64,000 nucleotides of DNA from Candidatus Uhrbacteria bacterium (GCA_943354605.1 CALRCK010000003.1:85609-149608); one strand, 5' to 3'. Shown: positions 4,455-38,715, numbered from the stretch's first letter. Made by a program: numbers and translations. Notes: generated by a model not told the origin, from the sequence alone.

Positions 4455-4570
4455 CCCATTTGGTCTAGTTTCGATTCACACCATCGCAAACTCGCTCAAC
4501 GTACCATGGAGTACGCCTCGCGAGTTTTGCTCGTCGTTCATCGAAACTAGCCTCAAATGTGAAAGTTCGA
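4455..4570 (-). repeat. Family-2 conserved ~110 bp hairpin element (copy A), sense orientation toward doxX start
   Basis: Shares ...CCATTTGG...GAAACTCGCTCAACGTAC..GTACGCCTCGCGAG...CTCAAATGTG with copies at 5672-5784, 29010-29125 and 38647-38715. It ends about 20 nt upstream of the doxX ATG. Confidence 0.7.
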
Positions 4571-4595
4571 TTAGGAATAATCGTAATCAGTGTAC

Positions 4596-4622
4596 CAAAA
4601 ACCCCAGCCTTACGCTGGGGCT
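4596..4622 (-). terminator. Rho-independent terminator after rplL
   Basis: Minus-strand hairpin CCCCAGCgtaagGCTGGGG followed by a T-run. Confidence 0.6.
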
Positions 4623-4630
4623 TTGTGGAC

Positions 4631-5014
4631 TTATTTCAAGGTAACCGTTGCACCTGCGGCTTCGAGCTTTGCCTTCATGTCGTCGGCTTCTGCCTTTGAA
4701 GCGCCTTCCTTCACGGCCTTTGGAGCAGCATCCACGATGTCCTTTGCTTCCTTGAGGCCAAGACCGGTCACTTCGCGAACTGCCTTAATGACGTTGATCT
4801 TGCTGTCGCCAGCTGCGGTGAGTTCAACGGTGAATGTGGACTTCTCTTCTGCTGCTGCACCCGCTGCTGCTGGAGCTGCGGCCATCATCATTGCTGGAGC
4901 TGCTGCAGAGACACCGAAGTTCTCTTCCAACACCTTCACCAACTCCGAAAGATCAAGAACAGACATCTTCTCAATTTCGCTCACGATGGACTGGAACTTT
5001 GCTGGGATTTCCAT
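4631..5014 (-). CDS. rplL: 50S ribosomal protein L7/L12
   Basis: [35 protein letters not shown]...[27 protein letters not shown], canonical L7/L12. Confidence 0.95.
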
Positions 5015-5036
5015 AAAAAGATAAATGATTTTTGAA

Positions 5037-5564
5037 TTACGCTGTTTTCTTTTCCTTCACTGCACCAAGGACATTGACCAAACTACGGAGGTTGCCAGCG
5101 AGAACGTTGACAAATCCGGTTGGCGTTGCGTTGAGTGTGCGAACGAGCATTCCAAGGAGCTGTTCCTTGCTTGGCAGTTCTGCCACACGCTTCACGTCGG
5201 CAGTACCGATGAGACGGTTTTCCAACACACCTGCAACCAAGCTTCCGATTTCTTTGTCTTTCAAGAAATCCTTCAGCACTTTTGCAGCAGTCACTTCGTC
5301 GCCATAGCTCACCGCAGTGAGAATGGAACCCTGTAACGCGTCGGGCACCACACCTTCCAACCCCGCTTCCTTTGCCGCAAGCGTCAGCAACGTTTTCTTC
5401 GAGATGAAGATATCCACGTTCTGTGCTCGAGCCTTGGCGCGCAAGTCGTCGGCATGATTCATGGTAAATCCGGACACGGACACAAAGGCTGCACCTTTCA
5501 TCCGCGTAAACTGATCCGCGATTCCCGCCACGATGTCGCGTTTTTCTGAACGAGACTTTGGCAT
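5037..5564 (-). CDS. rplJ: 50S ribosomal protein L10
   Basis: [46 protein letters not shown]..., canonical L10, immediately upstream of rplL. Confidence 0.9.
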
Positions 5565-5671
5565 AAATGAACCCTTAAATAAATGAGCAGCCCTTTAGGG
5601 GCCGCAGACATGTTCTAAACCGAGAGGTTCAGAGCGAGATTCTCGACAGGACTTACACCGGGATATCGAAC

Positions 5672-36050: not shown

Positions 36051-36158
36051 TGTTGCGTGGTTCTGCATAGATGGCGGGTATTTCATCGAATCTTAGCCTT
36101 TTTGTCAAACCGGTTATACAGAACTCCCTCAATTTCCCCATTTTCGCCGCACTTCCTC

Positions 36159-36464
36159 TTATTTCGTCATTTTTCCAAGGGCGAGATGCACGGAAAGTAC
36201 GTCGTCAAGCGTGATGCGCTTTCGGTCCATGAATCGTAGGGCGTCCTGCGTATCGCAGTCGGTAAAAATACCAACGCACGAAATATTCTGTTCGGAGCGC
36301 TCGACGATATACAACATTGCCCGGGAGCACTGCAGACACGTAGCATGAAGCGTTTCGCGCCGACCGTCTTTCTTTAAAGTGCGCAAACGTTCGCCGTCGT
36401 ATGAAACGGAACAAAACGGGCACCGGGTTACGGGGTCGAGCAATGCGCGGTCGTTCGCGTTCAT
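36159..36464 (-). CDS. Hypothetical zinc-ribbon protein
   Basis: CPFCS...CLQCS Cys pairs. 4-nt ATGA overlap with ftsW supports translation coupling. Confidence 0.45.
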   Translation of the reverse strand: MNANDRALLDPVTRCPFCSVSYDGERLRTLKKDGRRETLHATCLQCSRAMLYIVERSEQNISCVGIFTDCDTQDALRFMDRKRITLDDVLSVHLALGKMTK

Positions 36465-37585
36465 AGAAGAATATCGTGAAAACGGTCACCTGGGCGTAGT
36501 CGAATCGCAACGGACTGGACGAGCCCGAGAAGCACCAAGGAAAGCAAAAGCGCGCTTCCTCCATAGCTGACCAATGGCAGCGCAACGCCGGTTGCGGGCA
36601 TCAGCGAAAGATTTGCGCCAATGTGCACCGTAAGCTCGATAAGCATAACAGAAAACGTCCCAATACACAGATATGCACCAAACGTGTCGCGCGCCATCCT
36701 ACTCATCGCCAGCATCCGCCACAAGAGCACCACGAAAGCCAGGAACAACAACAGCACCCCAACAAACCCCAACTCCTCAGCAATCACCGCAAACACAAAG
36801 TCTGTTTGGCTTTCCGGCAAGAAACGGAGCTGACTCTGGCTGCCGTCGCCCAAACCTCTGCCCCAAAACCCGCCGGAGCCAATAGCGATCTTTGCCTGGG
36901 TGACGTTATATCCGCGGAACAGCGGGTCTCGCGACGGATCCAAGAAGGTGAGAATACGGTCCTTCTGATACGACTGAAACACAAACACCCATCCAATCAC
37001 CGCAATAAGCGCAACGCTTCCCAACAGCACAAACACCTGCGACGGACGAATGCCCGCAAACAACACCATCACCGCCCACGTTCCCACCAGAAGCGCCGCA
37101 CCTCCCAAGTCTGGTTGAAGCATGAGAAGGCCAACCGGAACCGCAACAAATCCACCACTCACGAAGAGGTCGCGCCACCCGAACCGACGTTTTGCACGTT
37201 CACTAAAATACAGCGCAAGCATCATCATGAGCGCGACCTTCATCAGCTCTACCGGCTGAAACGCGAATCCTCCCACTACAAACCAGCCCGTGGATCCATT
37301 CAGTGTTCGTCCAAAAAACAACACCAACACGAGCATCACTGCGCCCGCAACGTAAAAACCGCGAGCGTAATGACGAATTGCGTGATAATTCGCCGCCGCA
37401 ATTAGCGCACACGCCACCAAACCAATACCCAACGCGATCGCCTGCTTTTGGAGAAACACATTCGCTGAGCCGCGGGAAAGCTCAACAGAAAAAATTGCCG
37501 CAAAACCAAAGGTGATCAACACCGCCGCAGCAATCATGAGCAGTACGTCTCCTTTCCGAAGCGCCGTGAGTGAAGCAAAAGCCAT
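36461..37585 (-). CDS. ftsW: FtsW/RodA/SpoVE family peptidoglycan glycosyltransferase
   Basis: About 10 TM helices. Conserved GWFVVGGFAFQPVELMKVALMMMLALYF and ...IGSGGFWGRGLGDGSQ... blocks. Confidence 0.85.
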   Translation of the reverse strand: MAFASLTALRKGDVLLMIAAAVLITFGFAAIFSVELSRGSANVFLQKQAIALGIGLVACALIAAANYHAIRHYARGFYVAGAVMLVLVLFFGRTLNGSTGWFVVGGFAFQPVELMKVALMMMLALYFSERAKRRFGWRDLFVSGGFVAVPVGLLMLQPDLGGAALLVGTWAVMVLFAGIRPSQVFVLLGSVALIAVIGWVFVFQSYQKDRILTFLDPSRDPLFRGYNVTQAKIAIGSGGFWGRGLGDGSQSQLRFLPESQTDFVFAVIAEELGFVGVLLLFLAFVVLLWRMLAMSRMARDTFGAYLCIGTFSVMLIELTVHIGANLSLMPATGVALPLVSYGGSALLLSLVLLGLVQSVAIRLRPGDRFHDILL

Positions 37586-37594
37586 GGCCCCACA

Positions 37595-38506
37595 CTACTT
37601 CAACAAATCTCTTGGATCAATTCCTTGCTCCCCTTGTGGCGACATGTAGCTTGATTCGTCAAAAAAATTCACGTTCGGCGCAACGGTCGCGGTGGCGGTG
37701 AGGGGAATGTCGCCGTACCAACGCACTTCTGAATTCCGAATTTCTCCGGCGGTAAACTCCGACAACGTTGCTTGCGACACGCCAACCACCGCACCAGCAC
37801 GTTCAAGAATCACATTAAACTGTGGCGCCCAATAGCTATATGGCGAGGCGTTCGTGACGGTAAACGTTGTGCGGCCAATCTTGTCGTTCGCAAGCGCAAT
37901 GTCGGCGGCATACGTCGGTGTCGTGAGCAAAAAATTTCCATGTTCCGCAAGCCATGCCGCAACGTCTGGCGCGTCGTGATGATTCACGCGATGCCACACA
38001 ATATTCTCGAGTGTTATGGACGGAGACGATGGACGACCGTCAGCCTTCGTTCCAAGCGAAAGCAGATATTTACTCTCCCCCGGCATCACAAAGCCGTCTT
38101 CAATTCGAGAGGTCGTAGATCCAGCGGAAAAGCTATACGTAAATGTTGCGTACCAATCCGCGTTCGTATTTTTTACCGTTGCATAAAAGTCGTAACTCGT
38201 CGGTGTTCCCTGCACGACTTTTGCCGATCCAAGCGTGAGTTGCTGCGCGTCGCTTCCCTTTGCAATGGAGTGCATTGCAGCAATATTATTCGCAAAGCCT
38301 GCGGCCGAGCGAATCTCAGCGAACGAATCGGAAACAATGTACCCAATAATGACGAGCGCAAAAAATGCCAACATCGCAACATCAGCAATCACCGCCAGCG
38401 CAAAACCCAAGCGCATCAATTTTGGCCGAGCTTCAACAATGCGAATATCGCGCCTGTTCTGCGCCTCGATCGCTTGAAGTTCCGGGGAAAGAATCGGATT
38501 GGCCAC
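37595..38506 (-). CDS. Hypothetical single-pass membrane protein upstream of ftsW
   Basis: TM LGFALAVIADVAMLAFFALVIIGYIV followed by a ~230 aa extracytoplasmic domain. Possible divisome-associated protein. Confidence 0.45.
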   Translation of the reverse strand: MANPILSPELQAIEAQNRRDIRIVEARPKLMRLGFALAVIADVAMLAFFALVIIGYIVSDSFAEIRSAAGFANNIAAMHSIAKGSDAQQLTLGSAKVVQGTPTSYDFYATVKNTNADWYATFTYSFSAGSTTSRIEDGFVMPGESKYLLSLGTKADGRPSSPSITLENIVWHRVNHHDAPDVAAWLAEHGNFLLTTPTYAADIALANDKIGRTTFTVTNASPYSYWAPQFNVILERAGAVVGVSQATLSEFTAGEIRNSEVRWYGDIPLTATATVAPNVNFFDESSYMSPQGEQGIDPRDLLK

Positions 38507-38646
38507 AAATCAAAGTCCAAAAAGACTTTTAGCTTCTGTCAACAGAATAATACCATGTCTCGCTTGTTCCCGATCGACCGCGCATGATAAACTCCGATCA
38601 CGAAATTATTAGAACTTTTTTATTTGCGGCGAGTTTGGGCGCGCAG

Positions 38647-38715
38647 CGAGAAAAGCTCTTGAAACGTACCTCTTGGTACGTTGAAAGAGTTTTCGATGCT
38701 GCAAGGCCAAAATCG
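38647..38715 (+). repeat. Family-2 conserved hairpin element (copy D, partial), sense toward gyrB
   Basis: AAGCTCTTGAAACGTACctcttgGTACGTTGAAAGAGTTTTCGATGCTGCAAGGCCAAAATCG. The stem carries compensatory changes (CTCTT/AAGAG where other copies have CTCGC/GCGAG). Confidence 0.6.

Follow-up and report, generated by a model that had tools for sequence, protein, structure and literature searches.

A dispersed, strand-polar hairpin repeat beside gene starts in Uhrbacteria-like Patescibacteria, probably of the ERIC/REPIN kind

A family of imperfect hairpins, each about 125 nt long and folded end to end, was characterized in a 64,000-nt stretch of DNA from a Candidatus Uhrbacteria bacterium (GCA_943354605.1 CALRCK010000003.1:85609-149608), hereafter the window, and in its relatives; in total, at least 45 copies were found across about 12 related Patescibacteria/Uhrbacteria genomes. 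The family is probably a new ERIC/REPIN-like dispersed structured repeat of Uhrbacteria-like Patescibacteria, once mobile and by now likely co-opted by its hosts. It does not serve as a leader dedicated to rpsB, gyrB, doxX or the GGDEF gene, the four genes beside which a preliminary description of the window had reported it, offering as explanations either a sense-oriented leader RNA or a MITE (a miniature transposable element with inverted repeats) bearing a promoter or ribosome-binding site.

Exactly six copies were recovered in the window by a covariance model (CM), and the same search, which the preliminary description had proposed, also revealed further copies in related genomes. The six copies, together about 1.2% of the window, are as follows.

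Copy A, 4445-4575, minus strand, sense to the adjacent gene; CM score 130.5 bits, E 9e-31.
Copy B, 5661-5791, plus strand, antisense to rplJ, which lies on the minus strand; CM score 143.8 bits.
Copy C, 29000-29131, minus strand, sense; CM score 121 bits.
Copy D, 38605-38735, plus strand, sense, full-length; CM score 135.6 bits.
Copy E, 50390-50520, minus strand, antisense to gatB; CM score 93.7 bits, E 2e-21.
Copy F, 41823-41951, minus strand, degenerate, antisense to secE; CM score 53.4 bits, E 4e-11.

Copies A to D are those first reported, and their presence is far beyond chance: the core pattern CGTAC-N6/7-GTACGTTGARMGAGTT has four matches in the window against 0.00 expected from shuffles, and the CM E-values range from 1e-28 to 1e-34. 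Copies E and F had been overlooked; they were exposed by a repeat search together with a looser pattern, CGTAC-N5-8-GTACG, which has six matches against 0.1 expected. Alignment verified that the motifs originally quoted are common to all four copies, alignment and pairing confirmed the double change from CTCGC/GCGAG to CTCTT/AAGAG in copy D, and the identities of rpsB, gyrB, doxX and the GGDEF gene were upheld by Pfam and gene annotations. The unit itself had been drawn too short: it is not an element of about 110 nt with a central stem, but a hairpin of about 123-131 nt paired from the first to the last nucleotide, and copy D, taken for a 69-nt fragment (38647-38715), is complete. Counted from the stem end, copies A, C and D stop about 6-12 nt before the start codon and not 19-30 nt, and the direction supposedly common to all copies relative to the downstream gene applies to A (doxX), C (rpsB) and D (gyrB) but not to B, E and F.

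Copy A sits between the rplL terminator and doxX, with its stem end about 9-10 nt before the doxX ATG (4437), and its RNA folds at -58.1 kcal/mol (z -9.7) compared with -41.9 kcal/mol for the opposite strand. Copies A and B bracket rplJ-rplL as an inverted pair, forming an inverted repeat of 123 nt that is 83% complementary. Copy C lies about 10-12 nt before the rpsB ATG (28991) and about 140 nt downstream of the terminator-like site of the preceding gene (29304-29272), while the stem of copy D ends 6 nt before the gyrB ATG (38741), with a fold of -54 kcal/mol versus -42.7 on the opposite strand. The antisense copies E and F come within 4-8 nt of the gatB and secE start codons: copy E (-57.6 versus -43.2 kcal/mol on the opposite strand) is squeezed between the stop codon of an open reading frame (ORF) at 49608-50387 (+) and the gatB ATG at 50522 (+; GatB by Pfam match), and the 5' end of copy F is about 8 nt from the secE start (41959).

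The hairpin is maintained by compensatory evolution. In an almost gap-free alignment of 42 sequences, from which copy F was left out, RNAalifold recovered a single hairpin with 47 pairs, 29 of which keep pairing through changes on both sides, and the earlier claim of a structured hairpin was thereby borne out. Overall, 95.4% of alignment cells are paired, compared with 81.9% after shuffling of the columns and 33-43% after sliding of the partners, and none of 500 shuffles reached the observed value of any pairing or covariation measure, although this control ignores the relatedness of the copies. Several pairs display three or four Watson-Crick types (columns 27/113, for instance, hold GC 17, CG 12, UA 10 and AU 3 times), and in unrelated copies the outer stems are entirely different yet complementary. 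The centre is best conserved, consisting of a 7-bp helix, (G/A)CGUAC...GUACGU(U), with two wobble or A-U pairs closing it. This apical helix rests on an invariant 5'-GA/3'-AG tandem mismatch, with further purine-rich internal loops beyond it, and variation is greatest in the outermost 10-15 pairs.

The hairpin is also polar, since conserved G·U pairs and tandem G·A purine-purine loops favour one strand. Across the 42 copies, 173 cells hold G·U and 15 hold A·C, five columns being conserved as G·U. In every copy it is the same strand that gives the more stable fold; the advantage is about 14-16 kcal/mol, with mean differences of -13.8 kcal/mol in sense-placed and -16.0 kcal/mol in antisense-placed copies. 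DNA parameters give an equal asymmetry, with -33 to -36 versus -22 to -26 kcal/mol. Because the asymmetry appears under both parameter sets, it indicates that one single strand matters and does not tell RNA from DNA. The ends of the hairpin are complementary but variable and covarying, as in TG/CA, CT/AG, AAA/TTT and GACGGAACG/CGTTCCGTC. Of the 42 copies, 20 have TAG as their 5' end and about five have GTAG; roughly half of the copies start with TAG and end with CTA, and a few have GTAG...CTAC.

The window itself belongs to a 171-kb ENA metagenome contig, ERZ27280315:k141_168332. Beyond it, scanning GTDB species genomes for the exact pattern gave 33 loci, of which 27 hold the element. These come from about 12 metagenome-assembled genomes (MAGs) labelled Candidatus Uhrbacteria or Patescibacteria, some carrying the label 'uncultured Gammaproteobacteria'; at least one locus so labelled (L021) is syntenic with the window at about 78% identity, which suggests that these labels are wrong. 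Using nhmmer and the CM, 42 strong copies were identified, in addition to weaker ones. The strong copies score 75-124 bits with nhmmer, the antisense strand only 17-27 bits, and the CM gives 117-147 bits in sense against 31-62 bits in antisense. Two very divergent hairpins, one in another Uhrbacteria MAG (L004) and one in a MAG labelled Bdellovibrionales (L020), have only the apical module and the strand asymmetry in common with the family, and both keep the tandem G·A loop and the apical helix. Three Arcicella matches of the genome scan were dismissed as chance matches inside sequence that reads by eye like an elongation factor P (EF-P) coding sequence, and a Saccharibacteria match (L002) was rejected because it folds no better than shuffles. 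Local clustering was also seen: around a tRNA-Thr/tRNA-Tyr cluster, four hairpin copies or remnants lie within 750 nt (L026, 6149-6899), and another locus (L013) packs five copies into 5 kb, of which three adjoin tRNA genes.

Nothing similar came up in the databases searched. Compared with Rfam 15 at the gathering score, the whole window gave no family match except for a tRNA, and a search with copy B at E <= 10 yielded nothing relevant, in keeping with the earlier remark that the element is no obvious match to known ribosomal-protein leaders. The exact-pattern scan of IMG/VR viral contigs gave 0 matches, blastn (word size 11, E <= 0.01) against 5,426 complete E. coli genomes found no match, nor did blastn against plasmids and phages, and no description of such repeats was found in the literature on Patescibacteria/Uhrbacteria.

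Comparison of related genomes, which carry copies at different intergenic sites, indicates that the hairpin family is or has been mobile. Five pairs of filled and empty sites were found, two of them with the empty site in the window.

Empty site at 31393-31399 of the window; in L009 it is occupied by an antisense copy 11 nt before the rpmE ATG, as seen by aligning flanks and junctions.
Empty site at 42856-42863 of the window; the L021 copy stands here, in sense, about 8-11 nt before the rplK ATG and just after a TATAAAT box.

The str operon is a further instance: a copy precedes rpsL in L014 and L017, lies between rpsL and rpsG in L018, and lies between rpsG and fusA in L017, so that L017 and L018 offer each other the empty sites for the rpsG-fusA and rpsL-rpsG copies. 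Additional filled and empty pairs are L008 versus L033 and L041 versus L038. In L033 the empty site is a 3-nt operon junction (TAA-ACT-ATG), into which L008 has a 123-nt element. At the site of copy F, a junction comparison with L021 showed the copy to be absent or mostly deleted, with a possible remnant. As a side observation, several operon junctions in the window are likewise only about 3 nt long.

Where a copy is present in two relatives, it is strongly conserved in place, as the following ortholog comparisons illustrate.

Copy C versus its L009 ortholog: 96.0% identity; rpsB third positions of the four-fold type, 58%; upstream spacer, 79%.
Copy B versus its L015 ortholog: 99.2% identity; rplJ synonymous sites, 79%.
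The L008 and L033 copies, both antisense: 92.7% identity; ftsA synonymous sites, 51%.

A fourth ortholog pair is 94.3% identical. Paralogous copies within one genome differ by 11-30%, and concerted evolution is therefore no easy explanation for the identity of orthologs. These alignments indicate that individual copies are under purifying selection at their loci, being conserved well above synonymous sites. The changes that did occur at paired positions between orthologs comprise 19 double compensatory changes, 15 exchanges between Watson-Crick and G·U, three between Watson-Crick and A·C, and 10 to other mismatches. Furthermore, the tRNA-Thr/tRNA-Tyr spacer copies (L016, L026 and L027) differ at many outer-stem pairs, all of which are still paired. 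In antisense ortholog pairs, four G·U changes, no A·C change and one double change were counted; adaptation of antisense copies to the mRNA strand was not seen, and their polarity is not relaxed. Antisense copies keep up selection for pairing on their own strand.

Placement was assessed with rough gene calls from a codon-usage score and ARAGORN, key genes being verified with Pfam and ENA annotations. In either orientation, almost every copy lies no more than about 25 nt from a gene or tRNA start, and it is the 3' end of the element that hugs the gene boundary: the median gap is 8 nt at this end versus 53 nt at the 5' end, and a gap of at most 16 nt occurs at the 3' end in 30 of 38 copies and at the 5' end in 8 of 38. 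Relative to the adjacent gene, 19 of the 42 copies are sense, 14 antisense and nine otherwise placed; among the 33 classifiable copies a 1:1 ratio is not rejected (binomial p = 0.49), a result that contradicts a sense-oriented leader. The sense copies stop 2-16 nt short of a start codon or tRNA and adjoin rpsB, rpsL, rpsG, rplK, rpmI, tRNA-Ser, tRNA-Pro, tRNA-Tyr, gyrB, mreB, bactofilin, ybaB and doxX. The antisense copies, to which copy F is additional, are antisense to both neighbours, typically 0-6 nt after a stop codon and 4-24 nt before the next start, with fusA, rpmE, gatB, hisS, ftsA, tRNA-Val and rplJ as downstream genes. Orientation correlates with context, as upstream gaps are 24-278 nt for sense copies and 0-6 nt after the stop codon for antisense ones (Mann-Whitney p 0.002), and nearly all copies wedged into operon junctions are antisense. 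By eye, subfamily I seems to lean antisense and subfamily II sense, in numbers too small to be conclusive.

These positions bear directly on the proposal of a cis-regulatory leader RNA, in which a protein- or ligand-responsive or thermosensing hairpin would act in sense within the 5' untranslated regions of unrelated genes. The short distance from the 3' end of all 19 sense copies to a start codon or tRNA is in line with it, as are the correlation of orientation with context, the presence of translation-apparatus genes at 14 of 27 distinct loci, and the covariation, G·U polarity and tandem G·A pairs typical of functional RNA. In addition, a -10-like hexamer ends 2-12 nt upstream of the 5' end in 10 of 18 sense copies, compared with 2 of 18 in a control window, and the hairpin could therefore begin the transcript. 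Against this stand the 14 antisense copies among the 33 classifiable ones, copies B and E of the window included, and copy F: antisense copies have the same polarity, are 93-99% conserved and show G·U over A·C changes at 4:0. Moreover, presence varies among close relatives upstream of the essential genes rpmE, rplK, rpsG and fusA, which implies that these genes do not depend on the element, and a hairpin of -60 kcal/mol placed 2-6 nt from the mreB or gyrB AUG would be expected to hinder initiation and not to regulate it. Because about 40% of the copies are reversed and equally conserved, a sense leader cannot be the general explanation, and as an account of the family it is unlikely. Such a role may still hold for the sense copies, for which the orientation-context correlation and the -10-like boxes are the best hints.

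Copy B lies 100 nt upstream of rplJ and 180 nt upstream of the GGDEF ORF at 5968-6582, and two back-to-back promoter-like sites (5829-5913) are found to its right.

Promoter-like site TTGACA-17-TACTAT, 5829-5857, minus strand; 10/12 consensus matches, aimed through copy B at rplJ.
Promoter-like site TTGACG-17-TATACT, 5885-5913, plus strand; 10/12 consensus matches, 55 nt before the GGDEF ORF.

As copy B is downstream of the minus-strand site aimed at rplJ, it is probably transcribed in antisense; if the consensus matches are real promoters, it would probably form part of the rplJ leader, in antisense, and lie outside the GGDEF mRNA. A terminator-like hairpin in the same region (5605-5587) directly precedes the rplJ ATG and may represent an attenuator or leader of the L10 type; the L10 leader of Rfam gave no match. 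The GGDEF ORF (plus strand) is supported by a Pfam match of 78 bits; the public gene call has in its place an opposite-strand ORF with no Pfam match.

The same placement can be set against the idea of a MITE that supplies neighbouring genes with an outward promoter or with a Shine-Dalgarno sequence (GAGGAAG, in its 3' arm). Copies do stand immediately upstream of start codons, and in some sense copies (for example L001 and L014) the consensus of the 3' arm, ...CAAATGAGGAAGTCCTA, brings GAGGA to 6-13 nt ahead of the ATG. A consensus scan, on the other hand, detected no sigma-70-like promoter inside copies A, B, C and D, and GAGGAAG also occurs in antisense and tRNA-adjacent copies, is missing from copy D (gyrB) and from the L018 (rpsG) and L021 (rplK) copies, and is base-paired within the hairpin. 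Local Shine-Dalgarno adaptation was accordingly rejected as a reading of GAGGAAG, which is the family consensus whatever the orientation, in a genome whose genes largely lack Shine-Dalgarno sequences. What stood of the earlier MITE proposal is a dispersed repeat with insertion polymorphism; the internal promoter, an orientation-dependent GAGGAAG, a clean target-site duplication and, in the roughly 430 kb covered, a parent insertion sequence (IS) were not found, and a promoter- or ribosome-binding-site-bearing MITE is very improbable. The upstream regions of about 45 ORFs in the window mostly have no Shine-Dalgarno sequence but carry, 0-4 nt ahead of the ATG, an AT-rich box resembling TATAAT/ATATT, which suggests that initiation in this lineage may be Shine-Dalgarno-independent or leaderless.

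The window encodes one enzyme that might have moved such a hairpin.

Y1 tyrosine transposase, 283 aa, gene at 59708-60559 (element 59658-60575), plus strand; Pfam PF01797 (Y1_Tnp), 52.5 bits.

The protein matches NCBIfam NF047646, 'REP-associated tyrosine transposase', at 90.1 bits (cut-off 80). Its gene is single-copy and syntenic in the relatives L038 and L041, that is, vertically inherited, and its homologs (67-83%) have the same type of terminal inverted repeat (TIR). In four genomes (window, L038, L039/L040 and L041) the gene is flanked by GGGGTCAGGTCG TIRs, inverted repeats of about 31-45 nt that begin GAAGGGGTCAGGTCG in all four. At its outer end the TIR reads GGGGTCAG, in agreement with the GGGGWSAS motif that Di Nocera et al. 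(2013; PMC3733652) reported for the 'TIRtron/TIRYT' class, and the right repeat overlaps the last codons of the gene. The GGGGTCAG-type TIRs have no relation to the hairpin family and do not occur in the 33 hairpin-bearing loci; the nearest hairpin copies are 1.3-9 kb from the Y1 genes. The transposase was therefore rejected as the cognate partner of the hairpin, being flanked in four genomes by GGGGWSAS-type TIRs and not by the hairpin, and it is only a candidate trans-acting mobiliser of the family. Regarding the TIRs themselves, the gene is syntenic with co-varying TIRs in L038, L039 and L041, and solo TIRs (AAAGGGGTCAGGTCGTTTATTGC...) occur in the window at 33412-33446 and 40742-40776, one of them directly after the gyrB stop and before a terminator-like hairpin. 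Many of the 5,617 database homologs of the Y1 gene are on contigs of about 1 kb, as is the case for multi-copy elements.

The transposase also enters a reading in which the hairpin acts at the DNA level, as a polar single-stranded or cruciform structure bound or cut by a host protein, for example a domesticated Y1 transposase, independently of gene direction. In line with such a role, polarity and conservation do not depend on orientation to genes, the hairpin is stable and equally asymmetric with DNA parameters, a single-copy, syntenic Y1 gene is present in the genome, and REP/REPIN elements provide a precedent. The hairpin is, however, not physically associated with the transposase gene, its orientation is not significantly biased with respect to GC skew (16 versus 28, p 0.10), and placement at gene starts together with the orientation-context correlation points to transcription-related selection; a DNA-level role is unlikely. 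GC skew is negative across the whole window (-0.02 to -0.17), and the divergent gene arrangement at gyrB (38.6 kb) is for this reason not a replication origin.

Under the preferred reading, that of a once mobile repeat later co-opted by its hosts, the family would have spread through a strand-specific, single-stranded hairpin intermediate, as do REP/REPIN and IS200-type elements, with the Y1 transposase (59708-60559) acting in trans as the only candidate enzyme seen. Inserted copies would then have been retained where the hairpin was useful or costly to lose. When co-transcribed, it would form a very stable 5'-leader or intercistronic hairpin, whose most likely effect would be on mRNA or pre-tRNA processing or stability, for instance as an RNase III substrate or a 5' stabiliser; alternatively, retention could be due to an action of the hairpin at the DNA level.

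Several observations weigh against this reading. No consistent target-site duplication was found at the five filled/empty junctions, whose flanks have diverged by 12-25%. TA stands at both ends of about 14 copies and is equally explained as stem; the non-palindromic end dinucleotides are inverted complements (TG/CA, CT/AG) and not direct repeats, and hence belong to the stem. Across the window and 41 loci (about 430 kb), neither a parent IS with the same termini nor a transposase flanked by the hairpin element was detected, and tblastn for an IS200/IS608 TnpA over the window and the loci, with approximate queries, found nothing. As the Y1 gene is flanked by a different repeat, its link to the hairpin family amounts to co-residence in the genome. 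An IS200/IS608-like lagging-strand mechanism predicts an orientation bias relative to GC skew, which is not seen, and variable ends with a conserved centre are the reverse of what REPINs and transposase-bound TIRs display. Selfish repeats are not usually conserved so strongly in place, which suggests that the hairpin serves the host. Finally, all statements on transcripts rest on consensus promoter matches and gene order.

A bolder version of co-option would see in the hairpin no selfish DNA but a strand-polar structural module that the host has domesticated, with the tandem G·A loop and the 7-bp GCGUAC/GUACGU helix as its invariant apical motif. Read on its own strand regardless of the direction of neighbouring genes, it would flag the 5' limit of strongly expressed genes for translation and cell division in these streamlined bacteria, and it would be recognised by a dedicated protein in the form of single-stranded DNA, a cruciform or a separate RNA. 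This idea is tentative and, on balance, doubtful.

Other repeats and genes of the window were recorded alongside. A second palindromic repeat family of about 80 nt, starting GTCATCCTGAG.GAAGCGAAGG, occurs at 597-676, 10957-11044 and 14405-14511 of the window as well as at L007 2496-2584 and L032 1337-1430, and is conserved in other Uhrbacteria MAGs. A third family comprises repeats of about 79 nt (GTCATTGCGAGG...CCTCGCAATGAC) at 25838-25894, 45993-46071 and 46537-46615, and a perfect inverted repeat with 26-nt arms (GTCATCCCCGCGTAGGCGGGGATCCA) lies at 7273-7339; this small genome thus contains several families of hairpin repeats. An ORF of 984 aa at 7361-10315 (-) contains seven tandem repeats of about 290 nt, has faint Big_7/Big_13 matches and probably encodes a surface protein. 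At about 18900-20600 (L035 1770-3405), a Y-family polymerase (IMS) gene adjoins a small gene for a 23S_rRNA_IVP/bAvd-like four-helix bundle, with LexA nearby, a neighbourhood that looks like an SOS-type cluster.

Genomes of the candidate phyla radiation (CPR) are about 1 Mb in size and streamlined, and repeats are not expected to be tolerated there. The hairpins described here stand a few nucleotides from the start codons of ribosomal-protein, gyrB, ftsA and mreB genes or from tRNA genes, and are steadier than silent codon positions, in a superphylum for which no such elements appear to be described in the literature searched. If the family is only an ERIC- or REPIN-like passenger, it would extend this class to a new superphylum and provide a marker for strain typing and assembly breakpoints. 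If its conservation reflects a host function, it would be a candidate for a signal that acts globally on the control or processing of the translation apparatus in uncultured organisms; and if the idea of a domesticated module is true, it would constitute a new genome-wide system of cis-elements in an uncultured phylum.

Among known systems, ERIC elements (also termed IRU) are imperfect palindromes of about 127 bp, strictly intergenic near ORF ends, present in either orientation and co-transcribed as RNA hairpins; their presence varies between related genomes, they have no transposase of their own, and they are reported to duplicate TA. The hairpin family resembles them in size class, in being an imperfect palindrome over its whole length, in its intergenic location in both orientations, in its variable presence among relatives and in having no transposase of its own. 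It differs in having no blastn similarity in E. coli, a CPR host and no observed target-site duplication, and in combining an invariant tandem G·A/apical module with variable, covarying ends. Correia/NEMIS elements are inverted-repeat elements of about 100-150 bp near gene starts, co-transcribed, with hairpins that RNase III can process, and they are further characterized by conserved TIRs, TA duplication, a site for integration host factor (IHF) and promoter elements. Size class, inverted repeat and proximity to gene starts are common to both families, whereas the conserved TIRs, TA duplication, IHF site and promoter elements were not found in the hairpins. Unlike in DDE-type MITEs, the terminal inverted repeats are not conserved in sequence, and the conserved part is the centre. 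Integron attC sites, such as the Vibrio cholerae repeats of about 125 bp, are similar in length, in forming a strand-specific single-strand hairpin with unpaired bases and a conserved structure, and in their position between stop and start codons. An attC identity was nevertheless rejected, as there are no RYYYAAC/GTTRRRY core sites and the termini TTAGGAC...GTCCTAA have the opposite polarity; in addition, no cassette arrays are formed, the neighbours are housekeeping genes and both orientations occur. Like ribosomal-protein leaders, the element is found upstream of rpsB, rplJ, rplK, rpsL and rpsG, but unlike these and other Rfam leaders it also precedes tRNAs, gyrB, mreB and ftsA and is polymorphic between relatives.

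The likeness to REPIN/REP elements lies in a long hairpin with compensatory changes, high copy number, intergenic location and vertical persistence; REPIN hairpins themselves undergo compensatory changes and have a presumed single-stranded DNA intermediate (PMC3116915). As in REP-RAYT systems, the genome encodes a RAYT-type Y1 (HUH) transposase and about half of the copies have TAG...CTA ends; unlike in these systems, the transposase gene is flanked by GGGGTCAG TIRs and not by the hairpin element. REPINs consist of two inverted REPs with GTAG (or CGTC) heads, whereas the present unit is one uninterrupted hairpin, carries GTAG in only about five of 42 copies and shows no internal REP palindromes shared across the family. 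Furthermore, REPs are mostly located downstream of genes (PMC3733652), while the hairpin copies adjoin gene starts. By kind, the family would thus appear to belong among the bacterial intergenic palindromic repeats represented by ERIC, REPIN/BIME and Correia elements, while departing from each of them in the features that specifically define it.

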